NCBI GenBank assembly: GCA_903884345.1
Contig: CAISEE010000046.1
Location: forward strand, 3,830-67,829
Reading direction: 5' to 3'
Source: Candidatus Adlerbacteria bacterium
GTDB lineage: Bacteria > Patescibacteriota > Minisyncoccia > Phycocordibacterales > SBAW01
DNA: 64,000 bases
A program made the translations under genes and the position numbers. Below are positions 10,831-45,542 of the stretch, in pieces. A model generated the notes under the pieces. The model did no database searches and was not told the DNA's origin. It saw only the letters and a program-made list of their open reading frames with translations. The first letter of the stretch is position 1. Every line of letters begins with the position of its first letter.

Positions 10831-11517
10831 TTATGATTGCGGTGTCGCACCTGTGGGCGTCGTCGTGGACGATTGCGTCGTGTCTGAAGCGGGCGCCGCT
10901 GCCGATTGGTCGGTCGAGGCCGCGCTGGTGCCCAAGGTCTTGGCGAAGTTGATGACCGACGGGTCGACTGTCGCGGTGACGTTAAAGGTTACGGCGCCGG
11001 TACTACCCACGGTAATATTGTTGAACGAGACTTCCTTTAGGAGCTTGTTGGCGCCGAACTGGTCGCTCTGGAGCGCCACAGTCGCGAAGCTGTCTGCCTG
11101 CCCGTCGAGGGTAATCTGCGCCGACCCGTCGGCCTGAAGCTCGTAGTCAAAACTGCTGAACTGGACCGCCTGGAGTGTCTGACTGCCCAGGAAGGTAAAG
11201 AGTGCCGAGGGCGCCACGTGCTTTTGCAGCAGCCCCTCTGCGTTTTGGATGCGCAAGTCGAGGCGACTCATCTCGGCGATGGTGTCGGGATTGAACGCGT
11301 CCTGTGCTTTTTTGAGCGAGTCCGTCTTCGTGGCGATCGAGGTCGTGAGCACCTGCGAGTAGCCGAATGCCGCGCCGGCCAATACGATCGAGGCGATGAA
11401 GACGAGCAGCGCGATGATGAAAAAGATGCTGCTGAAGGCGCCTTCACTGCTGGCGTAATAGCTACCGCTATCGAGCGACTGCTTGGGAATGAAAGATGCC
11501 GGAGCCTGAGAATCCAT
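10831..11517 (-). CDS. PilN-like type IV pilus biogenesis protein
   Basis: N-terminal TM helix after a short cytoplasmic segment; immediately downstream of pilM; Ser/Thr-rich C-terminus. Confidence 0.55.
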   Translation of the reverse strand: MDSQAPASFIPKQSLDSGSYYASSEGAFSSIFFIIALLVFIASIVLAGAAFGYSQVLTTSIATKTDSLKKAQDAFNPDTIAEMSRLDLRIQNAEGLLQKHVAPSALFTFLGSQTLQAVQFSSFDYELQADGSAQITLDGQADSFATVALQSDQFGANKLLKEVSFNNITVGSTGAVTFNVTATVDPSVINFAKTLGTSAASTDQSAAAPASDTTQSSTTTPTGATPQS

Positions 11518-15566: not shown

Positions 15567-15968
15567 TTAGCCCAGCAAACCGTAGACGAGGTACATGGTG
15601 TACGAGGCGATGGCGGTAAGCGTCGTACCCCAGGCCATGTCGACGAGGGCGACCTTAAGCGGCCAATCTTTAAGCGTTGCGAGGTTGGTGAGGTCGTAGG
15701 TCATGTAGCACATAAAGCCAAAGAGCGCGCCATACAAAAGTGCGCGCATGGGGCTGTGTGCAACGATCGCCGGGTGCGCAGCGAAGATCATGATGCCAAC
15801 GAGATAGCACGCGTAAAACAAAATCGCGGGTGTTAGTAAAAACGACGGCGCAAGATGGTACCCAAGACCGGCTTTGATCGAATCTTTAGCAATGACCCCG
15901 AGCCACAGACCATCGAGCAGCAACATGACCGGCGCGGTTAATAAAACTGCGTAGAGTAAGCGAAGCAT
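15567..15968 (-). CDS. Small integral membrane protein (DUF2177-like)
   Basis: 133 aa, four predicted TM helices. Confidence 0.55.
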   Translation of the reverse strand: MLRLLYAVLLTAPVMLLLDGLWLGVIAKDSIKAGLGYHLAPSFLLTPAILFYACYLVGIMIFAAHPAIVAHSPMRALLYGALFGFMCYMTYDLTNLATLKDWPLKVALVDMAWGTTLTAIASYTMYLVYGLLG

Positions 15969-29293: not shown

Positions 29294-29365
29294 GGGCGCA
29301 TAGCTCAGCGGTAGAGCAGCCGTCTTATACACGGCCGGTCGTAGGTTCGATCCCTACTGCGCCCA
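29294..29365 (+). tRNA. tRNA with anticodon UAU (predicted tRNA-Ile decoding AUA)
   Basis: Acceptor GGGCGCA/TGCGCCC; D-arm GCTC-AGCGGTA-GAGC; anticodon stem GCCGT/ACGGC with loop CTTATAC; T-arm GTAGG-TTCGATC-CCTAC. Confidence 0.75.
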
Positions 29366-29445
29366 CAAAGATTGCATGCCGCCGACGAATGCGGTATGGT
29401 CAGCCACAGAATAGTCTCCTCAACACACAGAATGGAAAGTTCCCG

Positions 29446-30530: not shown

Positions 30531-32480
<1,950 letters not shown>

Positions 32481-32564
32481 GAGAGTTACATAGTACCATT
32501 TTGACAAGTTCAGGACAAAAAAAGGCCGTTGCGGTATTGTACAGGTACGCAGTATATAAATAGT

Positions 32565-33008
32565 ATGAATTTGATCGAACACAAAAAGGCGCACCTCAAC
32601 TTCGAGCTCATCAAAGAGTTCGAGGCCGGGATCGAACTCTTGGGCCACGAGGTCAAAACCCTGCGCAGTCGCCACGGCAAGATCGAGGGCGCACACGTCA
32701 TCGTCCGCGGTGGCGAAGCCTTTTTGGTGGGCGCGTCGCTCCCACCCTACCAGCAGACCAACACCCCCGGCGACTACGACCCCGACCGCACGCGTCGCCT
32801 CTTGCTGACCAAGCAGGAGCTGGCTGAGTTGGCCGAATATGAACAGCAGAAGGGCTTGACAATCATCCCTATTTCTGTCTATAATAAAGGTGCGAAGTTG
32901 AAGGTACGCATCGCGGTCGCCCGCGGTCGTAAGAAGTTCGATAAGCGCGCGGTCCTCAAAGAACGCGATGTGAAACGAGAGATCGACCGCACCTTGAAAA
33001 ATCAATAA
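32565..33008 (+). CDS. smpB: SsrA-binding protein SmpB
   Basis: AHLNFELIKEFEAGIELLGHEVKTLRSRHGKIEGAHV...DPDRTRRLLLTKQELAEL. Confidence 0.9.
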   Translation: MNLIEHKKAHLNFELIKEFEAGIELLGHEVKTLRSRHGKIEGAHVIVRGGEAFLVGASLPPYQQTNTPGDYDPDRTRRLLLTKQELAELAEYEQQKGLTIIPISVYNKGAKLKVRIAVARGRKKFDKRAVLKERDVKREIDRTLKNQ

Positions 33009-33399
33009 CTGAATGAGTGTTCGAAAGTGGTTCAAAAAAACCACGCTCTAGCCCGGCATTACTCGGGCAGAGAATTTGACGAGTATTTGACATGAGTTCG
33101 ACACCGCGTACCAATGACTGCTCGGTAACTCCTCGTACCGAGACTGACGTCCTCTTGTGGACGGAAGCCTTCCTCGCCCTTGGGGTGCCCGCCGTCACCG
33201 CTGTGGTGATTCGCGCACAGGCCGGACGCTTCGGCATCCTGACCGTGATGGAGGAGGACAAACACCGAGGTCTATCCGTGATCCACTAAGCAGCCCCGGC
33301 GCACCGGCATGTACTCCTTACATCGCCGGTCGCCACCACTTTCGAGCACTCAGTCGCTGGCATTCATTTTGAGCGAATATCTTTCGATGTTCTTTCAGA

Positions 33400-33780
33400 G
33401 GGGATGCCAGGCATAGACAATGGGACAGTTCGTCGGATGCGCGAAGTAGAAGACCAGATCTTCTTAAAAAGCTGGAAAACCTACCTGCAGCCAAAACTGC
33501 ATCGCCGTATTTCGCGGCGAACGACTTCCAGTTCGCGCTCGCGCGAGCCTAACGTCGCACTCTCTCCTTCTCGCCTGAGGCTGGAGACCGGGTGTTATAT
33601 ATCAGGACTATAGTCGCGAATCGTCCGCCTTGCGACGCGACCGAACATTAGAGGCTGCAATCGACGCTAGTTTCGTTCGCTTCATATAGCGTCGGTTAAA
33701 GAAACAAAAAAGCGCGACTACACTCCGTAGAAGCTCCGATAGCTCCCCGTTGCACGCGGGTTCAACTCCCGCCATCTCCA
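33400..33780 (+). ncRNA. ssrA: tmRNA (ssrA)
   Basis: 3' end ACGCGGGTTCAACTCCCGCCATCTCCA nearly identical to E. coli tmRNA 3' end. 5' GGGGATG pairs with CATCTCC including a G3:U pair. Internal tag-like frame GCG AAC GAC TTC CAG TTC GCG CTC GCG CGA GCC TAA (ANDFQFALARA*); adjacent to smpB. Confidence 0.8.
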
Positions 33781-33929
33781 CTCGACTCGCCTGCCTTTAT
33801 GGCAGACTCGCTCGTGGCAAGCCACCGATTCGGAATAGCCGACTTGGTGGCTTTTCACGTTGGCGAATCGAGTGTCCCGAGCGAAGTCGAGGGACTTGAT
33901 TTGAATACTAGGCGCGCGAAAATAGAGAC

Positions 33930-34197
33930 ATGTATTTCGTGTACATGATCAAGAATGCGGCAGACGAACTGTATGTTGGCGTAACCGAAAACCCGCAGCA
34001 CAGACTCGCCTACCACAACGAAAAAACGCGGCGCACAGTATACGAAACACTCCTCGACCTACGCTATCGTATTTTTGGAAGAGCACTCTTCCCTCTCCGA
34101 CGCGCGTCAGCGTGAAATACAAATCAAGAAATGGCGGCGAGAAAAGAAAGAGGCGCTTATTGTTAGGTACGCAGCAGGTCTTGAAACTCGACAATAA
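33930..34197 (+). pseudogene. GIY-YIG nuclease superfamily protein (YhbQ/UPF0213-like), frameshifted in an A6 run
   Basis: Frame 0 MYFVYMIKNAADELYVGVTENPQHRLAYHNEK, then +1 frame RGAQYTKHSSTYAIVFLEEHSSLSDARQREIQIKKWRREKKEALI*. Frames join if A6 at 34021..34026 were A5. Confidence 0.7.
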
Positions 34198-34458
34198 AGA
34201 AGCCCGCGGTTCCGATCACGCATTCGCCAAGAAACATTTGTTATAAACGAAACGGTTTGCGTGAAAAAAGTAGAAGTTGTATTCTTACCCATGGGTGGAC
34301 GGGGCAAGATCGCTACGACTCCTCGGAGTTTAAACATATAGCGCACTTCGTCCACCCACCTCGACGTGCCACCCGGCGCGTCGATTTTTTGTATTAGGTC
34401 GCTCGTACATTGACTTTGTGTGCTGTATATGCTATAATAACAATAGTAGGAGGTTCAC

Positions 34459-34863
34459 ATGGACTTTGAACTGGAGAACGTCGGCATCGGCCGTCATCCG
34501 CGATACATTATGACGATCGAGACCAAACGGTTTGGTCGGCATCGCTGGCAGCTCGACGACCTGGTGCCGCGGACTTTGATGAAGCAGGTATGCAACGGCT
34601 CGCACGCGATGTGGTGGCAAGATTCCGACGAGCATTTTTCAATCGAGGTGCCGAGCGAAGACGTCGCGCAGTTGCTCGCCGACGCCATCGAGTCATGGCT
34701 TGAGGCCCAGGTTGTTGCGGACGCGGAGTTCGACGCATCCGTGAAAGCGGCGCAGGAAGCGGAGGACGCACAATCGCATCAAACTTCATTGCGCAAACAC
34801 GTCTATGCCGCTCTCGCGGTAACGGCGTGCATCATCGCAGTATTTGCGCTGATTGTTTGGTGA
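34459..34863 (+). CDS. Hypothetical protein with C-terminal TM anchor
   Basis: Strong SD AGGAGG 5 nt upstream of ATG; acidic helical domain; C-terminal VYAALAVTACIIAVFALIVW. Confidence 0.6.
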   Translation: MDFELENVGIGRHPRYIMTIETKRFGRHRWQLDDLVPRTLMKQVCNGSHAMWWQDSDEHFSIEVPSEDVAQLLADAIESWLEAQVVADAEFDASVKAAQEAEDAQSHQTSLRKHVYAALAVTACIIAVFALIVW

Positions 34864-34942
34864 CGAATGTGGCAGACGCCGCGAAAGGGTTGGCACGAAT
34901 GACTTACCTCATTTCGGGCCAACCTTTTTTTATTCCCCGCCA

Positions 34943-35368
34943 CTACTCCCGTACGAAGTGGGTGGTCTCGTGGTAGGCGTCGTAATTTACCGTGAGCTCT
35001 TCGCCCGCTTTGATGTCGCGCAGCGCGACGAAAGTCTCGCCCCGGTCGTGCGTCACCATGTTGGGAGTCTTCGAGTGATTCAAAAAGTAATTTTTGGTAA
35101 GCGCGTCCATGCCGTAGCTGGGGACGTGGTAGACGCCATCTTGAAGTGCGCAGAAGTCGCGCACCAACTCTTTTGCCGCCTCGTCGCATGGGTACAAGTC
35201 GAGCTCCTCTTTTTTTATCTTGAGTAACGTGCCAAACGGGTCGGCATGTTCAAGCGGGTCGGTGCCCTGGGGTATGGTGCGGATGGCGACGAGCCCCACG
35301 CCGTGTGTCGTGACCCCGAGGCGGCAATAAATTTTCGTGAGTGATTCGAGGAATTCCTTCTTGCGCAT
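34943..35368 (-). CDS. SET-domain protein (putative protein-lysine methyltransferase)
   Basis: FLNHSKTPN (NHSxxPN) and RDIKAGEELTVNYD SET core motifs; 141 aa. Confidence 0.75.
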   Translation of the reverse strand: MRKKEFLESLTKIYCRLGVTTHGVGLVAIRTIPQGTDPLEHADPFGTLLKIKKEELDLYPCDEAAKELVRDFCALQDGVYHVPSYGMDALTKNYFLNHSKTPNMVTHDRGETFVALRDIKAGEELTVNYDAYHETTHFVRE

Positions 35369-35404
35369 GAAACTCTACTCTACCCCACCCACGGCCCCGC
35401 TACC

Positions 35405-35441
35405 AGATAGAAAAATCCCGGGGCCTGGTGGGGCCCCGGGA
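35405..35441 (-). terminator. Rho-independent terminator
   Basis: On the minus strand: TCCCGGGGCC-ccacca-GGCCCCGGGA followed by TTTTTCTATC. Confidence 0.7.
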
Positions 35442-35460
35442 CTAACGAACGAGCTCTGCG

Positions 35461-35595
35461 CTACTCGTTCGTCATGCCTTTCGTCACGAACGCATCGAAT
35501 TGATCGATCGAAAACTTGCCGAGAGTTCGCAGAGCACGTCCGCAACGGGACGCGATCGCAACAGACCGGTAGCACAACTTCTTCAACGTCAGCAT
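35461..35595 (-). CDS. Candidate small protein (44 aa), not in ORF track
   Basis: MLTLKKLCYRSVAIASRCGRALRTLGKFSIDQFDAFVTKGMTNE; AAGGAT SD-like 8 nt upstream; strong terminator directly downstream. Confidence 0.3.
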   Translation of the reverse strand: MLTLKKLCYRSVAIASRCGRALRTLGKFSIDQFDAFVTKGMTNE

Positions 35596-36161
35596 GGTGG
35601 AAATCCTTTCCAAAAGAGCCTGTCACCATGACAGACTCGTGAATGCCAACCGCAATACTACACTCATTGTTTACAGTACGTCAATAGCCCCACATAATTG
35701 ACAAACATGAAGATACGGTGTATTTATGACAGCGGAAGTTCACCAATATGTGTGTTTCGCGTGAATCCATCGAAAACTGGGATACGGTAGACATAATGTG
35801 CACAACAACGACCTACTTGCACCTCATCGCTCAAGACTCACCGAGTGATGTGCGACCGAAGAAAACTCCGAACACAGGACGAAAACAGAAACAGCTCGCG
35901 AAAACGAGAACTTATTGGCTCGAAGGAACCACGGTCGTACGTACGACCTCGAGAATATCGACCTCGTCGGTATTCATGCGCGGGTGTTCCCTTTGAAACC
36001 GCCGATTTCGCTGGCCTGCTCTGCGCCGGCATGCACATGCAGAAACAGGAAATTGCTTGCGATGGACAAGCTCAATCCTGATGAGACGAGACTGTTCTTG
36101 ATTGCCGTCGAGCACGCAATACGAGTGCGCGACGCGCAGAAAGCCGCCGCCTGATTACCGG

Positions 36162-36194
36162 CCGCCCCACACTCTGGGGCGGTCTACTTTTTTA
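36162..36194 (+). terminator. Rho-independent terminator ending a probable noncoding transcript
   Basis: CCGCCCCA-cactc-TGGGGCGG followed by TCTACTTTTTTA. Confidence 0.7.
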
Positions 36195-36249
36195 TACCCA
36201 CTCCCCTTTCACCTCGTACACACGCGTGCTCGTGTATCCTTTGACGCCT

Positions 36250-36447
36250 ATGATGGAACTACAAAAGATGCAGAATCTGCTGGGGACGCTCAAGTACCCG
36301 CTGACCAAAGAGCAACTCCTGCAGGAGATTACCAACCATGGACTCTTGGAGTCGCTCCCACTCGTAAACAGCCTGCCCGATCAGCCGTTTACCAATGCGA
36401 ACGACATCCTATCCAAATTGAAAGACACAATGGGAGAGATGCATTAA
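36250..36447 (+). CDS. DUF2795-like small protein
   Basis: MMELQKMQNLLGTLKYPLTKEQLLQEITNHG...LPDQPFTNANDILSKL resembles DUF2795 layout. The track ORF starts at GTG 36226. Confidence 0.55.
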   Translation: MMELQKMQNLLGTLKYPLTKEQLLQEITNHGLLESLPLVNSLPDQPFTNANDILSKLKDTMGEMH

Positions 36448-36592
36448 CCTCAATATCACGGGAGGCGTGGCATAACAAACCTTGGGTAGTTCTGCACCCA
36501 CGGTTCGCGAAGCGGCTCGGCAAGACGCGGCGTCGCGGCGACATGACAATAAAAAATGGTACGGTAAAACAAACGTAAGGGACAGTGTGGCG

Positions 36593-37438
36593 ATGTCGAA
36601 ATGGCTCACCGTTGATGTCGGGGAAGACGACGTCTCGATAAACGGCAACCCTATCAACTACAACGAGGAGATACAGTGCGGGTTCGGATTCGTCATATTC
36701 AGTCGGCGAAGCGGTGCTTTGGAGGTGACGAGGTATTCACGTGCGGGAAACGAAAAGTACCGCACCGAACTGCGCCGTCGCGGGAAGTGGCGAATCGGTT
36801 CGGATTGCGCGTACCGCATGATTTTGCCGCAGGAGGAATCAAACCTGGTGCGGCGACTCATTCGTCTGTCGTGCCTACCAATGGCGATACTCCACCCCCA
36901 CGAGTTCGGCGAGGAGGTGGTTCTTCACACGATGGACGTGGACAAGCGGCGGAGGCTGCTCGTCGACACTGACGAGTACATCCAGGGCCCCTATGCGGGC
37001 CCGTGGCCGGTCACTCTGTCGACGGCAAGCTACGCCATCGTGTCCGAACACTTCGACCGAGACGGCGCGAACACACGACCCCGCATAAGCGCCGTCCATG
37101 TGTGGGGAGAACCGAACACCACAATCATGAGAAGCATCATCGCAAAGCACCTCTTCGGTGAGGTGGCCAACCACGAGTACCTATGGGTCGCACACAACGA
37201 CTCTAACCGTCCCGAGGCCGAGGCCTGGGTCGCGCGATGGTTCGCGTTCGGCTCGGTGTCGAGCGACCCTCCCACGCGGCGCTTCATGACGATCAACGGG
37301 CAGATCGTCGCCGAGCATCAAAAACATCCGGACTGGATTCGGCGCGGACCCTTCCGCCTGCTCTCTGACCTTAACCGACGATATCCGGGGATTTTGCCCC
37401 ACGAGTTCGACACACCGAAAGGATACCGCAGACGATAA
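36593..37438 (+). CDS. Hypothetical protein (orphan)
   Basis: 282 aa from MSKWLTVDV; no recognisable motifs. Confidence 0.5.
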   Translation: MSKWLTVDVGEDDVSINGNPINYNEEIQCGFGFVIFSRRSGALEVTRYSRAGNEKYRTELRRRGKWRIGSDCAYRMILPQEESNLVRRLIRLSCLPMAILHPHEFGEEVVLHTMDVDKRRRLLVDTDEYIQGPYAGPWPVTLSTASYAIVSEHFDRDGANTRPRISAVHVWGEPNTTIMRSIIAKHLFGEVANHEYLWVAHNDSNRPEAEAWVARWFAFGSVSSDPPTRRFMTINGQIVAEHQKHPDWIRRGPFRLLSDLNRRYPGILPHEFDTPKGYRRR

Positions 37439-37521
37439 CCACTACGTTCATTCGCATATGTGCAACCGAAGCTTCGCGCGGCCTTCCGTGCGGAGCTTCT
37501 CTCGACTATACTTATCGCTGT

Positions 37522-38007
37522 ATGCAACTCTACCGGTGTAGCCCCATCGACAGCGAGGCAGGTTTGCGCGAGGCAATCGCCTACGTCGCCGACGCCTCAT
37601 CGCAGCTGTGCAAAAAAGTCACCGGCGAAGTTTTGCCCATCACGTCCCTCACCGTCTTTTCGCACTACCCAGCTGAGTTCGACTTTTTGAAATCGCTCCT
37701 GCCCACACTTGGCACCCTGGTCGGCGGCATCTTTGGCCCCCGCATCGTTTTAAACGAGCCGATTGTGGCTGGCCCGCACACCATCACCCACCTGCGCATC
37801 CGCGAGCCCGACCCCTACCGCGCACACGTCGGCAGCAACGACTACGACATCCCCGACTACACCGCGTTTAAAGAAACGTATCTTGCCGCGCATCCCGAGA
37901 ACCTGCGCATCATCCCGCGCGAGGGGTACGAATTGCTCGAGTTCTTCGACCCCGATTTCGACGTATTAGGCTACGTCCTCTCGGACCCGGCACGGTCGAA
38001 GAAATAG
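37522..38007 (+). CDS. Hypothetical protein (orphan)
   Basis: 161-aa ORF; no recognisable family. Confidence 0.5.
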   Translation: MQLYRCSPIDSEAGLREAIAYVADASSQLCKKVTGEVLPITSLTVFSHYPAEFDFLKSLLPTLGTLVGGIFGPRIVLNEPIVAGPHTITHLRIREPDPYRAHVGSNDYDIPDYTAFKETYLAAHPENLRIIPREGYELLEFFDPDFDVLGYVLSDPARSKK

Positions 38008-38084
38008 TCACGAGGAGCGTTTGACAAATCGCATGTTTGGTGTATAGTCAGTAGCAGCCGCACACCAAATGAAAGAGGCAACGG

Positions 38085-38285
38085 ATGTCGATTTTCGTAA
38101 CCGACCAACAAGAGATTGATGCTGAAGACCCGAACGAGTACAACAACGCGCGCGGAGGCGACGCGCTGGCGAGCCTCGTGCTGTTTATGCTCTGCATCAT
38201 CGGGGGACTCTATTTCCTCGGGATGGGCATCATCTCGCTGTGTGAGCAGATGACGCCCGCGCTCTCGGTACTCAACGTGATATAA
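38085..38285 (+). CDS. Small membrane protein (66 aa)
   Basis: AAGAGG SD 5 nt upstream; one TM; followed by a terminator at ~38340..38382. Confidence 0.45.
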   Translation: MSIFVTDQQEIDAEDPNEYNNARGGDALASLVLFMLCIIGGLYFLGMGIISLCEQMTPALSVLNVI

Positions 38286-38339
38286 TGACTAAACGATCAC
38301 GGGCCCGTCCCTCCCCCGGACACAAACCTGTGGCAGAAC

Positions 38340-38382
38340 AAACTCGGCGGCGCCCTTCGGGATGCCGCCTTTTTCTTTTTGT
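38340..38382 (+). terminator. Rho-independent terminator
   Basis: GGCGGCGCCC-ttcg-GGATGCCGCC followed by TTTTTCTTTTTG. Confidence 0.6.
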
Positions 38383-38476
38383 CGGCACAATGTTGACAGA
38401 AACGTATAATACGTGTCTTGTAAAAAATAGGTTCGCCGTCACGGAAAGCCGCAAAGTCTTCGAAAAGGTTCACACG

Positions 38477-38722
38477 ATGACATTCACTATTGCGTTGATA
38501 GTCCTCTTCGCAGCAGGCGTACTCTGCGCGAAGTTAAACTCCCGCGGTAACTATACGCTGAAAGAATCCGCGAGAACATGGATTCTTCCGCTGCTCCTCG
38601 GCATTGTATTCGGTATTGTGTATGGTTGGGCCTGGTCGCTGTTGGGCGCCGTCGTCCTCTTCGCTGGCTACGCCTCGTACTATATATTCATCGTTTGGCT
38701 GCTCCAAACGACACCCGAATAA
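38477..38722 (+). CDS. Small membrane protein (81 aa)
   Basis: AAAGG SD; starts MTFTIALIVLFAAG; two TM helices. Upstream TTGACA and TATAAT hexamers at ~38388..38405. Confidence 0.5.
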   Translation: MTFTIALIVLFAAGVLCAKLNSRGNYTLKESARTWILPLLLGIVFGIVYGWAWSLLGAVVLFAGYASYYIFIVWLLQTTPE

Positions 38723-38731
38723 TGCTCGACC

Positions 38732-38768
38732 CGGCGGCGCCTAACAAGCGCCGCCGATTACTTTTTTT
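38732..38768 (+). terminator. Rho-independent terminator
   Basis: CGGCGGCGC-ctaacaa-GCGCCGCCG followed by ATTACTTTTTTTA. Confidence 0.75.
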
Positions 38769-39606
38769 ACTGTGCGTTCGCGTACGCCTCGAACCCGTGC
38801 ATCAATTTTTTCGTCACCTCGCCGACCGCGCCGGTGCCGATTTTTGTATCATCTATTTGAACGACGGGCACGATGTCTTTGAAGCTTGAGGTAAGAAAGG
38901 CTTCGTCGGCCTGGAGCATCTCGTCGACCGAGACGGGGCGCTCCTCGACCGTACCTGCCGCACGCGCCACTTCAAGCGCTACTTTGCGGGTGATGCCTTC
39001 GAGGATGCCGATGTTTGGCGTGATGACAATGCCGTCTTTGACGATGAAGAAGTTGCTGGTGGCGCACTCGTAGACCCCGCCGTCGTGGACGTAGAGGATT
39101 TCGAGCGCCTGCTTTTCTTTGCGCTGCCCCTGGAGCAACACCGCCTCGATGTAGTTGACGGTCTTGTAGCGCGGGAACTGTCGCTCGAACTCGGCGGTGA
39201 TGAGCGAGCAGCCGTCGGTAAAGTTACTCGCCTCGATCGGCTTAAACTCCTCGCACAATATATAGAAGGTGGGCGTGCCTCGGTCGTACTCGATGCCCGC
39301 CTGCGCCGTGCCGCCCGTCAGAATAATGCGGAAGATCGACTCTTTGAATCCGTTCTTGGCATGGAGGTCCTCAAGAATTTGCCCGAACACCTCGTCGGTG
39401 ACGGGAATTGTGAGCTGCATCTCCCGGGCCGACATGCGAAAGCGCGCCGTGTGATCGGCCAGACGGAAGGGTTTGCCGTTTTTGGTCGCCAGCGCCTCGT
39501 AGATGCCAAAGCCGCGCAAGAGACCGATATCGCACACCGAAACCTTCGCCTCCGAAACCGGGATAATGTCGCCGTTGAGATAGCAGTACGTAGTCATGGG
39601 GTTCAT
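38767..39606 (-). CDS. Class IV aminotransferase (branched-chain amino acid / D-amino acid aminotransferase family)
   Basis: Fold-type IV motifs: FGxYE-like GFGIYEAL, catalytic Lys region YKTVNYIE, EGITR, AFLTSS. Possible start at 39597. Confidence 0.85.
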   Translation of the reverse strand: MNPMTTYCYLNGDIIPVSEAKVSVCDIGLLRGFGIYEALATKNGKPFRLADHTARFRMSAREMQLTIPVTDEVFGQILEDLHAKNGFKESIFRIILTGGTAQAGIEYDRGTPTFYILCEEFKPIEASNFTDGCSLITAEFERQFPRYKTVNYIEAVLLQGQRKEKQALEILYVHDGGVYECATSNFFIVKDGIVITPNIGILEGITRKVALEVARAAGTVEERPVSVDEMLQADEAFLTSSFKDIVPVVQIDDTKIGTGAVGEVTKKLMHGFEAYANAQ

Positions 39607-39647
39607 ACTACCACCATCAAACCCACACTTCTATGCACCCTGCTGCA

Positions 39648-41468
<1,821 letters not shown>

Positions 41469-41547
41469 ACTAGTAACGTCGCCCCGCTGCTCCGCGGATT
41501 ATGTGGTTCATACCGTATTAACAAACACCAAGCCGGGTGAGTTTCAG

Positions 41548-42912
41548 ATGATTCTATCGTATACTTTCAACATGATCGAAACCGCGCCCGTGATCGAAAT
41601 TAACATCGAGCCCAAGATCCTCGAAAAAAAGCACTCCACCCGCTTTGGCCGCCTGCTGCGCATTTTGGGCCCGGGCCTCATCACGGGCGCCGCCGACGAC
41701 GATCCATCGGGCATCGCCACCTACTCGCAAACGGGCGCACAATTCGGCTTCGGCCAGCTGTGGACGGCGCTCTACCAGCTGCCGCTCATCATCGCCGTCC
41801 AAGAGGCGTGTGCGCGCATCGGTGTGGTGACCGGCAAAGGTCTTGCTGGCGTCGTCAAAGAGCACTACTCGAAGAGACTCCTTACCGCGGTCGTCATTTT
41901 GGTCGTCATCGCCAACACCATCAACATCGGCGCCGACATCGGAGCGATCGCGAGCGCCTCGCAGCTCGTGTTTGACTTGCCCTTCGCCCTCTACGCCATC
42001 CTTTCGGCCATCCTGGTCGTAGCTCTGGAAATTCTCATCAGCTACAAAAACTACGTGAAGTTCCTGAAGTTCCTCACCCTCTCACTTCTGGCCTACCCCG
42101 TGACCGCACTCATCGTGCACGAGCCGTGGAAGCAGATTTTTGCCGCGACCCTCATCCCACACATGGAGTTTAATTTCGCGTTCTTCTTTATCGTCGTCGG
42201 TGTCTTCGGCACCACCATCACGCCGTACATGTTCTTCTGGCAGGCGTCGGGCGAAGTCGAAGAAGAGATTGCCAATCACCACCTGGCGCAAAAAGGCGGC
42301 ACCCCGCACGGTATCAAAAAGTTTCTCAAGCAAGTGCGCCTGGACACCACCATCGGCATGGTTGCCGCAGAAATTGCGCAGTGGTTCATCATCATCACGA
42401 CCGCGACCATCCTCTTTAGCCACGGCATCACCAACATCACTAGCGCCGCCGACGCTGCCAAAGCGCTCGAGCCACTGGTGCGCTCCTTCCCCAACTCGGG
42501 CCAACTTGCCAAAGACATCTTCGCCGTCGGCATCATCGGCCTCGGCCTCTTGGCGATCCCCGTCCTCGCTGCCTCGACCGCCTACGCCATGTCCGAGGCC
42601 TTCGGCTGGCGCGAAGGACTCTACCGCAAATTCCGCAAGGCGCGCGGCTTCTACGGCGTCATCATCGTCGCGACCTTCATCGGCCTTCTTATGAACTTCG
42701 TCGGCATCAATCCAATTAAGGCACTCGTCTTTGCCGCCGTCTTCAATGGTGTGACTGCCGTCCCCCTTCTCTTCCTCATCAATCGCATCAACGCCAACGA
42801 GGCCATCCTCGGTAAATACAAAGGCGGCGCACTCTCGCAAACCGTCATCTGGATCACCTTCGCCATCATGTCCTTCGGTGCCCTCGGCCTCTTCTACACC
42901 CTGCTGGCGTAG
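41548..42912 (+). CDS. mntH: NRAMP-family divalent metal cation transporter (MntH-like)
   Basis: GPGLITGAADDDPSGIATYSQTGAQFGFGQLW Nramp signature; ~11 TMs; GGGTGAG SD before ATG 41548. Confidence 0.85.
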   Translation: MILSYTFNMIETAPVIEINIEPKILEKKHSTRFGRLLRILGPGLITGAADDDPSGIATYSQTGAQFGFGQLWTALYQLPLIIAVQEACARIGVVTGKGLAGVVKEHYSKRLLTAVVILVVIANTINIGADIGAIASASQLVFDLPFALYAILSAILVVALEILISYKNYVKFLKFLTLSLLAYPVTALIVHEPWKQIFAATLIPHMEFNFAFFFIVVGVFGTTITPYMFFWQASGEVEEEIANHHLAQKGGTPHGIKKFLKQVRLDTTIGMVAAEIAQWFIIITTATILFSHGITNITSAADAAKALEPLVRSFPNSGQLAKDIFAVGIIGLGLLAIPVLAASTAYAMSEAFGWREGLYRKFRKARGFYGVIIVATFIGLLMNFVGINPIKALVFAAVFNGVTAVPLLFLINRINANEAILGKYKGGALSQTVIWITFAIMSFGALGLFYTLLA

Positions 42913-42934
42913 GCACATCAGCAAAATACGCTTC

Positions 42935-42956
42935 CTTGCGGAGGTCAGTCCTCCGT
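42935..42956 (+). repeat. Repeated terminator-hairpin motif (copy 1)
   Basis: ttgcggaggtcagtcctccg is identical over 20 nt to 59495..59514; the stem GCGGAGG/CCTCCGC follows the mntH stop. Confidence 0.7.
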
Positions 42957-42960
42957 ATGG

Positions 42961-43557
42961 CTATTTACCGCACACACCCGGGGCCCACAGGCCTTTTTGC
43001 TGTTGCTTGGCCTCGGCCTGCGCTGCATTAAATTCGGCTTGATACTTGTAGGGCACGTCGTAGGTGTACTCGTGGCCATAACCCTCGCTGATTAAATACT
43101 CGTCGACGAGGAATCCTTGCGGGTCGCTGTTAAGGGGCGCCCAGACATAGGCGAGCGTGCGGCCGTACTTGTCGAGCACTCCCTGCGATGGGTCAAACTC
43201 CAAGTGCACCGACTGGCCTGTAAGAAGGAGTTTGGTCTGCGCCGATGCTTCGCGGCCAAAGCACTGCACAGGCTTTCGCGGGTCGACCACCTCGGGCGTA
43301 TCGACGCCGATGAGGCGCACCGTGGTCGTGGCACCCTGGTGCATCACTACAATGGTGTCGCCGTCGATGACGCGAATAACCGGCTCCCAGACCGGGGTCG
43401 AGGTTGCGAGGGCGGCAGCAGAAACGGGTATTTCAGCCTGCGAGTGCGGGTTGCGGGCGAGAAACGGGTTGTCTCCATATGCCGATAGCTGCTGGGTCAG
43501 CACGGCCGCGCCAAGCACCACCAATGAAACCAGCATCCCGTACGTGCGTCTGCTCAT
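42961..43557 (-). CDS. Staphylococcal-nuclease-like (SNase/thermonuclease) protein, membrane-anchored/secreted
   Basis: RVIDGDTIVV...VRLIGVDTPE...YGRTLAYV SNase motifs. N-terminal TM from start MSRRTYG at 43557. Confidence 0.8.
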   Translation of the reverse strand: MSRRTYGMLVSLVVLGAAVLTQQLSAYGDNPFLARNPHSQAEIPVSAAALATSTPVWEPVIRVIDGDTIVVMHQGATTTVRLIGVDTPEVVDPRKPVQCFGREASAQTKLLLTGQSVHLEFDPSQGVLDKYGRTLAYVWAPLNSDPQGFLVDEYLISEGYGHEYTYDVPYKYQAEFNAAQAEAKQQQKGLWAPGVCGK

Positions 43558-43707
43558 ATCCCTATAATACCCCGCAGCCCTTGCGCTCCAAAACAACCTG
43601 TGATACATTCCTGTGCGGAGAGGCACCCAGAAACATCTAAGGGCGTGGTACCGAGATCGGTAGCCGTACTAGTACGTTCGCCGCCGAGCGGGCCGCCTCT
43701 CCACCCA

Positions 43708-43738
43708 CCACCTCCCCAAAAGGAGGTGTTTTTCTTTA
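43708..43738 (+). terminator. Terminator-like hairpin upstream of infC promoter
   Basis: CCACCTCC-ccaaaa-GGAGGTG followed by TTTTTCTTT. Confidence 0.5.
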
Positions 43739-43740
43739 TA

Positions 43741-43769
43741 TTGCCCGAAAAAGGCTTTGCTGGTATACT
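43741..43769 (+). promoter_or_regulatory. Sigma-70-like promoter for infC-rpmI-rplT
   Basis: TTGCCC-17 nt-TGgTATACT (extended -10). Confidence 0.5.
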
Positions 43770-43786
43770 CAAGGTCAACTAAAACT

Positions 43787-44305
43787 GCTTTGGAAACCCG
43801 AATCAATCACCATATCCGTGCGAAGGAAGTCCGCGTTGTCGGCGCCGAAGGCGAGAACCTGGGCGTTTTGGCCCTGTCTGACGCAATCGCCCGTGCCGAG
43901 GAGCTCAATCTCGACCTCGTCGAGATCTCGCCGAATGCCGTTCCCCCGGTTGCAAAAATCATGGAGTATGGTAAATTCCAGTACGAGCAGGAGAAACGAC
44001 GCCGTGAAATAAAGGCGAAATCTCACACCACCGAGACCAAAAGCGTACAGGTAAAGATCGGAACGGGCGAAAACGACCTTAATCTTAAAGCAAAACGGAC
44101 TGCGGAGTGGCTTCGAGAGGGGCACCGCGTCAAAGTGGACCTCTTCCTGTGGGGGCGGTACAAGTACATGGAATTCGCCTTCCTCAAAGAGCGATTGGAG
44201 CGATTTTTGAAACTCATCCCCGAGGAGTACAAGATCAGCGACCCCATCATCAAGAGCCCGAAAGGTCTCACCACCGTGATCGAGCGAGCAGGAAAGCCAA
44301 AGTAA
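43787..44305 (+). CDS. infC: Translation initiation factor IF-3
   Basis: INHHIRAKEVRVVGAEGENLGVL...EISPNAVPPVAKIMEYGKFQYE. Probably a non-AUG start (TTG 43787, or nearby) downstream of the promoter; the track ORF starts at 43757 inside the promoter. Confidence 0.85.
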   Translation, partial: ALETRINHHIRAKEVRVVGAEGENLGVLALSDAIARAEELNLDLVEISPNAVPPVAKIMEYGKFQYEQEKRRREIKAKSHTTETKSVQVKIGTGENDLNLKAKRTAEWLREGHRVKVDLFLWGRYKYMEFAFLKERLERFLKLIPEEYKISDPIIKSPKGLTTVIERAGKPK

Positions 44306-44315
44306 TCACCATTTT

Positions 44316-44516
44316 ATGAAAACGAACAAATCATTCACCAAGCGTTTGAAGTTGACCAAGACGGGCAAAATCGTCGCTCGCAAGCCGGGCCAAAACCACT
44401 TCAACGCCAAGGAGAGCCGTTCGACCCAGCAGGATGGCCGCCGCACCCAGAACATCGTCGTGACCCCGAAGGTCGCGCAGCGCTTTATTAACACCGCAAG
44501 CACGTTCAAGAACTAA
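44316..44516 (+). CDS. rpmI: 50S ribosomal protein L35
   Basis: MKTNKSFTKRLKLTKTGKIVARKPGQNHFNAKES. Confidence 0.9.
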   Translation: MKTNKSFTKRLKLTKTGKIVARKPGQNHFNAKESRSTQQDGRRTQNIVVTPKVAQRFINTASTFKN

Positions 44517-44525
44517 TTCACCACT

Positions 44526-44876
44526 ATGGCACGCGTAAAAGGAGGAGTCACATCAACAAAGCGACGTCACAATATCTTGGCAATGACCAAGGGTTACCGC
44601 TTTGGCCGCAGCACCAAGAAGAAGCAGGCCCGCGAGGCGATTTTCCACGCCGGCAAGAGCGCGTTTGCGCACCGCCGCGACAAGAAGAACGACTACCGCA
44701 AGCTCTGGAACGTCCGCATCAACGCCGGCCTCGACCAGATCTCGGAGACCTTCTCGTACAGCAAATTCATCGGCGCGCTTAAGAAGGCCAACATCGAGCT
44801 CGATCGCAAGATTCTCTCGACCCTCGCCGAAAAGGCACCCGAGACCTTCGCTCGCGTCGTCAAAAAGGTCTCCTAA
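44526..44876 (+). CDS. rplT: 50S ribosomal protein L20
   Basis: MARVKGGVTSTKRRHNILAMTKGYRFGRS... Confidence 0.9.
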   Translation: MARVKGGVTSTKRRHNILAMTKGYRFGRSTKKKQAREAIFHAGKSAFAHRRDKKNDYRKLWNVRINAGLDQISETFSYSKFIGALKKANIELDRKILSTLAEKAPETFARVVKKVS

Positions 44877-44895
44877 TCCCCTCTTTCCCCGGATT

Positions 44896-44930
44896 ACAAA
44901 AACCCCGTCATCGCGACGGGGTTTTTGTTT
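44896..44930. terminator. Bidirectional rho-independent terminator
   Basis: acaaaaa-CCCCGTC-atcgc-GACGGGG-tttttgttt. Confidence 0.8.
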
Positions 44931-44945
44931 GCACGGTGGGTGGTG

Positions 44946-45542
44946 TTAGCCGACCTTTTCAAAATGCATCTGCGCGCGCGTGATGGTGTCTTTGTTGACC
45001 AGCTCGACGACGCGCTCGACGAGGGCTTTGGGGTCGGAGTCAAAGACGATGCGATCGTTGGGGCGGTGGCCATTGGCGAGGATGTCTTTGATGACCTCGT
45101 CGGTCTCCCAAGCACCTTGCAAGACGCCGATCGGCTTTTGGTCCTCGAAAGCGATGGTGAACTCGTGGATGGTGCCGATGCGGCCGCAGCCAAAGAACAT
45201 CGCGTCGACCGATCGGGTAAAGATGAGGTCGCGGCCCGGGTAGCCAAAGCCCGTGTAGACGATGACGTCCATGTGCTCAATCGGCAGATTGTAGCCCTCG
45301 ATGTGCTCCTTCTCGCATGTGGCCGGTGAGAATCCCAGCGAAAAGCCGCCCGCTTGTTTGGCACCCATGGCAGACCACATCGGGAAGCCGGTCGTGGCGC
45401 CCGAGACGATGATGGCGCCGCTTTTGGCGATTTCTTGACCTAGTTGAATAGCCTGGTCGTAGGCATCGGGGCCGCAGTGGCCGGTTTCGGCGGCGCCCGA
45501 GACGCCGAATTTCATCTGCAAGTGTTGTTGCGGTTGTTCCAT
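44946..45542 (-). CDS. LOG-family / TIGR00725-like Rossmann-fold nucleotide-binding protein
   Basis: GHCGPDAYDQAIQLG...AIIVSGATTG...VIVYTGFGYPG pattern typical of the LOG/SLOG family. Alternative start at 45515. Confidence 0.7.
   Translation of the reverse strand: MEQPQQHLQMKFGVSGAAETGHCGPDAYDQAIQLGQEIAKSGAIIVSGATTGFPMWSAMGAKQAGGFSLGFSPATCEKEHIEGYNLPIEHMDVIVYTGFGYPGRDLIFTRSVDAMFFGCGRIGTIHEFTIAFEDQKPIGVLQGAWETDEVIKDILANGHRPNDRIVFDSDPKALVERVVELVNKDTITRAQMHFEKVG

Follow-up and report, generated by a model that had tools for sequence, protein, structure and literature searches.

What does a stand-alone SET-domain protein do in a bacterium with a small genome? The question is raised by a gene for a 141-amino-acid (aa) protein at 34943..35368 of a 64,000-nucleotide (nt) stretch of Candidatus Adlerbacteria DNA (assembly GCA_903884345.1, contig CAISEE010000046.1, positions 3,830 to 67,829), which is referred to here as the window. 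On its sequence features, the gene is genuine, intact and of the SET-domain methyltransferase type, and its genome is that of a member of the Patescibacteria (candidate phyla radiation, or CPR). With a probability of roughly 0.6, we consider its product to be a catalytically competent, cytoplasmic methyltransferase dependent on S-adenosyl-methionine (SAM), which would most likely methylate lysine in one or more of the cell's own endogenous proteins. A second SET gene was searched for in the 64-kb window, and none was found.

SET fold and active-site motifs

Comparison of the protein with Pfam detected SET (PF00856) as its sole domain. The match (E=1.1e-10, 42.3 bits, against a gathering cutoff of 22.4 bits) paired model positions 1-104 of 105 with residues 23-129 and, by this score, is well above chance. 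An AlphaFold2 model built with 42 homologues displayed the SET beta-fold with a mean predicted local distance difference test (pLDDT) score of 88.3 and a predicted template modelling (pTM) score of 0.79, and was weak only in the last ~11 residues (pLDDT 55-58 in the final two 10-residue blocks). All Foldseek matches in the PDB were SET-domain methyltransferases at a probability of 1.0, the best being S. pombe Set7 (E 5e-7), followed by MLL1/3/4, SETD8, G9a, vSET and BurB. The family-specific parts of the model are an N-terminal helix (3-12) and an insert with helices 53-58 and 63-72 and strands 74-83.

Invariance of the active-site motifs was scored over the 42 homologues, which are 57-80% identical to the window protein (Table 1). 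The sequences FLNHSKTPN (residues 95-103) and AGEELTVNYD (residues 121-130), read from the protein, contain motifs III and IV. Motif III is in register with NHSCAPN of MLL3 and NHSKSGN of SETD8. In the profile alignment, GEELTVNY was matched to GEELLYDY of SETD8 and GEELCYDY of MLL3, which makes Y129 the predicted invariant active-site tyrosine, with V127 at the predicted Phe/Tyr-switch position (SETD8 Y334). Within the DPFG strand, D43 is invariant and P44 and G46 are at least 90% conserved. All residues predicted to bind SAM or to act in catalysis are retained. Collectively, the significant profile match above the gathering cutoff, the predicted fold and the invariant motifs bear out the description given in the initial annotation, a stand-alone SET-domain protein with canonical motifs.

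Two tyrosine positions of SETD8, Y245 and Y334, correspond to Pro44/Phe45 and Val127 in the window protein in an alignment of E~0.004; judging from PDB entry titles, SETD8 Y245F and Y334F mutant structures address the same two positions. Because of these replacements, and as read from this modest alignment and from SET enzymology, the pocket is probably wider and di- or trimethylation may be possible. A Cys-rich post-SET region is absent from the protein. By analogy, the C-terminal tail likely forms a flexible lid over the cofactor/lysine channel in place of such a region, and its residues Y132, E134 and F138 probably become ordered over the cofactor upon binding.

In the proposed mechanism, the GxG strand (G23-G25) and N97-H98 would hold SAM, while the target lysine would enter a narrow channel lined by Tyr129, the aromatic residues of the family insert, and Y132 and F138 of the tail. 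The methyl group would then pass directly to the epsilon-amine. The assignment of protein lysine as the acceptor follows nearly all characterized SET enzymes and would hold for this protein by analogy.

The start codon is considered correct because the same methionine (MRKKEFL / MNKKxFL) is shared by the 42 homologues. An identical protein within an identical 2,426-nt locus is present in an ENA assembly record, which is possibly not independent of the source of the window. The predicted isoelectric point (pI) of the protein is mildly acidic, at 5.8, with a family median of 6.3.

Family, locus and transcription signals

A word-indexed search recovered 196 relatives, nearly all of them 140-150 aa long and 57-80% identical; the few that carry names are SET domain-containing proteins of Parcubacteria, Minisyncoccia or unclassified metagenome-assembled genomes (MAGs). 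A scan of GTDB with one genome per species yielded 40 loci with close homologues, all of them in Patescibacteria MAGs (Lloydbacteria, Adlerbacteria, Kaiserbacteria, Paceibacterota, and SPIRE MAGs labelled Saccharibacteria), which identifies the organism as a Patescibacteria/CPR bacterium. An exhaustive hidden Markov model (HMM) search of 1.84 billion cluster representatives gave 1,556 clusters (50% identity) at E<=1e-3 and 505 at E<=1e-10, mostly stand-alone proteins of ~140 aa, and over 5,121 clusters at 90% identity were collected with a profile of the distant members. The claim of the initial annotation that bacterial SET proteins are uncommon is contradicted by these numbers and by a 2014 review that counted SET genes in over 500 genomes of bacteria and argued for a bacterial origin (PMC3980110). 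NCBI and JGI already give close homologues the name "SET domain-containing protein(-lysine N-methyltransferase)", and routine annotation suffices to recognize the gene. The discovery value of the gene itself is thus small, prokaryotic SET genes being common and its close homologues publicly labelled. What stands out most is instead a large, uncharacterized minimal-SET family that very small genomes maintain under strong constraint and that also has members in phages and giant viruses. In the collection of papers searched, nothing relevant on SET proteins of CPR/Patescibacteria was found.

The few distant members named by organism are MAG proteins of Gottesmanbacteria, Acetobacteraceae and the archaeon Nitrosocosmicus, the latter two possibly mis-binned. 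In these two MAGs, the distant SET genes adjoin an Acetyltransf_6 (FemAB-like) gene, which in the Acetobacteraceae-labelled locus (L049; the other is L048) overlaps the SET start by 8 nt and lies beside Mur ligase and Glu racemase genes; the two loci may represent a cell-wall-linked sub-lineage, or mis-binned contigs. Among IMG/VR viral contigs, 176 relatives of the wider family were found, many on giant-virus MAGs, and the best viral relatives are 45-47% identical to the window protein. Structural neighbors in BFVD comprised SET proteins of Cafeteria roenbergensis virus, Megaviridae and uncultured Caudovirales. Two phage-like IMG/VR contigs, L054 (3968-4420) and L059 (3998-4411), carry SET genes encoding proteins 41-45% identical. 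In L054, the gene is enclosed in a co-directional block that also has tape-measure-like and tail-fibre-assembly-like genes; its SET protein might thus be virion-associated or injected. PADLOC and PHROGs gave no match for the window protein, a search of INPHARED phages gave no SET-family match, and a plasmid search returned two distant chromosomal-type SETs and nothing else.

In longer relatives, a search for other domains detected SET alone. Four proteins of 273-342 aa from AT-rich metagenomes (P0127, P0129, P0142 and P0154) fuse a degenerate N-terminal SET, which has lost the NHS motif and the catalytic tyrosine, to a catalytic C-terminal SET. Such fusions hint at a pseudo-dimeric enzyme and thus at a dimer as the possible working unit; vSET is reportedly a dimer (Manzur et al. 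2003). In a Parcubacteria genome (GCA_021414235.1; L003, 6001-6891), two different SET genes stand in tandem after a beta-lactamase2 gene, among cell-wall genes. The second encodes a classical 140-aa SET protein with E-Y-x-G and a CxCxxC post-SET, which matched the profile of the 141-aa family weakly (24.8 bits) and through the C-terminal motifs only.

At its chromosomal position, the SET gene is an old, vertically inherited resident beside the tmRNA (transfer-messenger RNA), SmpB and FtsH genes (Table 1). In each of the 7 related loci examined by Rfam, the tmRNA gene and SET were convergent. Across ten related genomes, identity to the window proteins was 59-77% for SET, 52-73% for SmpB and 66-83% for FtsH in the same pairs, and because SET tracks SmpB and FtsH in this way, it evolves like a housekeeping gene. 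Its GC content and GC content at third codon positions (GC3) were 0.563/0.754, compared with 0.573/0.742 for FtsH and 0.561/0.743 for SmpB. Only ~55 nt separate tmRNA from SET in L046 and L042, where the insert found in the window is absent; the gap is 550-1,230 nt, with unrelated genes, in L029, L033, L037, L007 and the window (1,159 nt), and in L007 other genes replace the insert. The 3' flank of tmRNA is thus a hot spot for lineage-specific insertions, and because the variable DNA lands between tmRNA and SET, SET belongs to the old block.

Table 1. Positions of the SET gene, its motifs and neighboring features in the window
Feature	Position	Strand	Remarks
SET-domain methyltransferase coding sequence	34943..35368	minus	ATG start, 141 aa, stop codon included
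G23-V24-G25, putative SAM-binding motif I (GxG)	35294..35302	minus	invariant in 42 homologues; aligns to KGRGV of SETD8
D43-P44-F45-G46, counterpart of E-Y-x-G strand	35230..35241	minus	HMM alignment places DPFG on SETD8 E-Y245-H-G
N97-H-S-K-T-P-N103, motif III (NHSxxPN)	35060..35080	minus	N97, H98, S99 and N103 invariant (42 homologues)
E123-E-L-T-V-N-Y129, motif IV (ELxF/YDY)	34982..35002	minus	E123, E124, L125 and Y129 invariant (42 homologues)
C-terminal tail, residues 131-141 (AYHETTHFVRE)	34946..34978	minus	Y132, E134 and F138 at least 90% conserved; pLDDT 55-58
-10-like box TAGAGT	35377..35382	minus	8 nt upstream of the SET ATG
Intrinsic terminator	35414..35443	minus	12-bp stem with 9 GC pairs; T-run; SET ATG 46 nt downstream
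Long imperfect hairpin GGTTGGC...GCCAACC	34888..34931	–	T7 on plus strand; A7 before hairpin on minus strand
Other open reading frames with TATACT box	10831-11517, 15567-15968, 37522-38007, 41458-42912	minus, minus, plus, plus	box 6-9 nt before start
Lineage-specific insert between tmRNA and SET	33784..34942	plus	frameshifted GIY-YIG (33930-34197) and hypothetical 134-aa protein (34459-34863)
tmRNA gene, convergent with SET	33400..33783	plus	Rfam RF00023, 88.7 bits
SmpB gene	32529..33008	plus	Pfam SmpB E=1.3e-43; syntenic in 6 loci (clustering)
FtsH gene	30531..32480	minus	true start near MVDQKKQ, listed frame extends further upstream; syntenic in 10 loci

Gene order beyond this block is kept at the level of lineages. 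The order in a sub-lineage is RNase J-like, LDcluster4, L20, L35, IF3, sigma factor, anti-sigma-like, peptidoglycan (PG)-binding protein, SET(+), SmpB(-) and FtsH(+); in Lloydbacteria, SET is found elsewhere, near SufBD and a VF530 protein. The genes on either side of SET are nearly always divergent or convergent, and cell-wall genes (beta-lactamase2, PG_binding_1, YkuD, YceG, FemAB-like) recur nearby, inconsistently. Neighbors were clustered from the open reading frames (ORFs) of 43 loci, namely the window and related loci, and separately from 80 viral loci. A conserved operon partner was considered as a clue to the substrate and rejected, the clustering having given lineage-level synteny only.

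Within the insert, the hypothetical 134-aa protein is membrane-anchored, and the UPF0213/YhbQ-like gene, assigned to GIY-YIG by a Pfam match, is split by a +1 frameshift near an A-run, frame 0 giving MYFVYMIKNAADELYVGVTENPQHRLAYHNEK and frame 1 the remainder (KRGAQYTK...EEHSSLSDARQREIQIKKWRREKKEALI). The identical sequence is present in an ENA contig (L050), so the frameshift is due to a genuine pseudogene or slippage site, or else to an assembly error common to both. Elsewhere in the window, a tRNA-Ile with anticodon TAT (UAU) at 29294-29366 (+) stands in place of the usual lysidine-modified CAU tRNA-Ile2, an AUA-decoding strategy that is unusual in bacteria.

The SET gene has transcription signals independent of its neighbors. 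In 23 of 44 distinct loci, a -10-like hexamer (TATACT/GATACT/TAGAGT/TATAAT) ends 4-12 nt ahead of the SET start, in most cases 6-8 nt, as opposed to 1% of random positions; the motif set was picked after the data had been seen and the loci are related, so a p-value is only indicative. The TAGAGT box 8 nt from the ATG in the window implies that SET has its own putative promoter abutting the start codon and a leaderless or near-leaderless mRNA, and SET would be transcribed alone from this promoter. The layout is not unique to SET: a TATACT-type box stands 6-9 nt before the start of 5 of the 74 window ORFs of at least 100 aa, where 0.5 would be expected, and this genome may make regular use of leaderless transcripts. 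Upstream, the terminator at 35443-35414 is predicted to end a separate minus-strand transcript and to insulate SET from read-through. Downstream, the hairpin between the convergent SET gene and the gene for the hypothetical 134-aa protein is a probable shared terminator; it was read from the sequence, the terminator scan having skipped it for a loop longer than 8 nt.

A riboswitch or attenuator leader for SET was also considered. In that layout, a promoter-like site at 35684-35655 would be followed by ~230 nt of leader and the terminator at 35443-35414. This candidate was rejected: Rfam gave noise only, relatives had no counterpart, and the conserved -10 box lies downstream of the terminator. 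The ~290-nt minus-strand stretch upstream of SET folds unusually well (z -3.83); Rfam in E-value mode found no credible match there, and no similarity upstream of SET was found in related genomes.

The ~880 bp upstream of SET (35369-36252) hold no called gene. The minus strand of this region contains a 50-aa ORF with a TTG start (35613-35461) and two consecutive strong hairpins before the terminator, and the plus strand contains a promoter-like site (35670-35698) and a terminator (36160-36184). A search of the region found no Pfam match above cutoff, no PHROG match and no Rfam family; it may hold lineage-specific small RNAs or small proteins. Beyond it, divergent from SET, lies a gene (36253-36447, +) for a small protein of the DUF2795 type (64-73 aa), whose match of 24.3 bits falls just under the Pfam cutoff of 25.

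Substrate and competing explanations

An endogenous substrate is favored because the protein combines housekeeping-grade conservation and an ancient chromosomal position with a mildly acidic pI and a lack of secretion or host-targeting features. Because such conservation is found in very small genomes, the methylation would be important to the cell. By precedent, the enzyme would act on a basic, abundant protein from the nucleoid or the translation machinery: Go1-SET of Methanosarcina mazei methylates MC1-alpha (PMC3980110), and cpnSET of Chlamydia pneumoniae methylates Hc1 (PMC10117894). A role as a regulator acting on nucleoid or ribosomal proteins is plausible. Linkage of SET to tmRNA, SmpB, FtsH and IF3-L35-L20 is only positional, since the genes are not co-oriented, and as a pointer to the translation apparatus it is weak at best. 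Knowing the substrate would bear on the question of whether lysine methylation is used by bacteria to regulate nucleoid or translation proteins of their own.

Several observations weigh against methylation of an endogenous lysine. The tyrosine of the canonical E-Y-x-G strand is missing, Pro44 and then Phe45 standing in place of it, and only ~83 of the 141 residues superpose on solved SET domains. For both of these reasons, the substrate site appears atypical, and lysine specificity would be an extrapolation. The loss of the tyrosine is a peculiarity of the subfamily, and the protein stays in the SET superfamily. No neighbor was conserved family-wide among the 43 loci and the 80 viral loci, so the genomic context gives no substrate. 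The relatives in phages and giant viruses show that the wider family can be turned against the proteins of another organism.

A broader version of the endogenous reading, which we regard as doubtful, is that the minimal-SET clade marked by DPFG and VRDFCALQ constitutes an undescribed, deeply conserved protein-methylation system of Patescibacteria, with a translation or trans-translation factor or a nucleoid protein as its substrate and with relatives borrowed by phages and giant viruses. In this version, a core translation or trans-translation substrate would be suggested by the ancient linkage to tmRNA-SmpB-FtsH and IF3-L35-L20. Phages and giant viruses would then use the borrowed relatives to modify host or virion proteins. 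If true, bacteria would here have their first defined housekeeping SET methyltransferase.

Delivery of the protein into a host, as the initial annotation had entertained, was weighed next to methylation of endogenous proteins. As an effector of an episymbiont, the protein would methylate host chromatin or other host proteins in the manner of NUE, RomA/LegAS4, BtSET and BaSET. Bacterial SETs studied experimentally, cpnSET with Hc1 excepted, are all secreted nucleomodulins (PMC10117894). The window organism belongs to the CPR, a group rich in episymbionts, and is probably an episymbiont itself; relatives 41-47% identical occur on phage-like contigs, one of them in the tail-gene block described above, and in giant viruses. 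However, the N-terminus of the SET protein (MRKKEFLESLTK) forms a helix in the AlphaFold2 model and is not hydrophobic, and no signal-peptide-like character was seen when it was read by eye, no predictor having been run. No nuclear localization signal (NLS), ankyrin repeat or other effector module is present in this SET-only protein, and the NCBIfam T4SS_AnkI/LegAS4 model scored 13.8 bits against a cutoff of 550. No secretion-system genes adjoin SET, its neighbors being housekeeping or hypothetical. Its conservation equals that of SmpB and its place beside tmRNA, SmpB and FtsH is ancient, whereas host-targeting effectors are not usually conserved at the housekeeping level. Known CPR hosts, moreover, are mostly bacteria or archaea, which lack histone tails. 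Thus, an effector role is unlikely.

It is quite improbable that the enzyme methylates a small molecule in the way that BurB S-methylates free methionine. BurB is a close structural neighbor of the model, and the substrate strand of the window protein is atypical. However, similarity to BurB was insignificant (phmmer E 0.57), a profile search at E<=0.01 did not include it, and eukaryotic lysine methyltransferases outscored it with the SET-family profile. BurB is encoded in the bur biosynthetic cluster, whereas the window SET is monocistronic and has no biosynthetic neighbors in 44 loci. Reduced CPR genomes also have little secondary metabolism.

Another candidate, a "eukaryote-like" gene recently acquired with a genomic island at tmRNA, was rejected as very improbable. 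The 3' end of tmRNA is a classic site of integration and is 1.16 kb away from SET, with the GIY-YIG gene in between, and local GC is ~0.53 compared with 0.58 for the window. Against an island, no tmRNA-derived, att-like direct repeat was found in 33300-45000 and no integrase among the neighbors, and the GC3 of SET equals that of FtsH and SmpB, while its divergence tracks the housekeeping genes. SET also adjoins tmRNA in all seven related loci, including the two with the ~55-nt gap, and the closest eukaryotic SETs match at E~1e-3 only. The horizontal acquisition that the initial annotation had proposed to test by phylogeny is therefore not supported by composition, synteny or similarity.

Lastly, a pseudoenzyme or binding module with a non-catalytic SET fold, for which the degenerate N-terminal copy in some fused relatives might speak, is scarcely credible when every cofactor-binding and catalytic motif is invariant in the window protein and in the 42 homologues.

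Comparison with known SET systems

Two minimal SET enzymes, the eukaryotic S. pombe Set7 (PDB 5h6z) and the viral PBCV-1 vSET (3kma, 1n3j), are 16-25% identical to the window protein. The window family differs from both in its extra N-terminal helix (3-12), in its insert (helices 53-72, with the VRDFCALQ signature) and in having DPFG rather than E-Y-x-G. Set7 and vSET act on histone H3, whereas no histone is known in the window organism. The SET domains of KMT2 (MLL1/3/4) and KMT5A/SETD8 are parts of large multidomain, complex-dependent histone methyltransferases, while the window SET stands alone; the product-specificity tyrosines of SETD8, Y245 and Y334, are Pro44 and Val127 in the window protein.

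Bacterial systems with other kinds of substrate also differ from the window protein. BurB, a methionine S-methyltransferase of Burkholderia thailandensis (PDB 9l4t/9l4v), uses a free amino acid and belongs to a biosynthetic cluster of the dimethylsulfoniopropionate (DMSP)/malleicyprol type; there is no such cluster at the window SET. NUE, RomA/LegAS4, BtSET and BaSET are larger proteins from pathogens of eukaryotes and have secretion signals, NLSs or ankyrin repeats. The favored functional model is instead provided by Go1-SET and cpnSET, to which the window protein is likened by description only: both are small prokaryotic SET proteins that reportedly methylate the DNA-binding proteins of their own cells.
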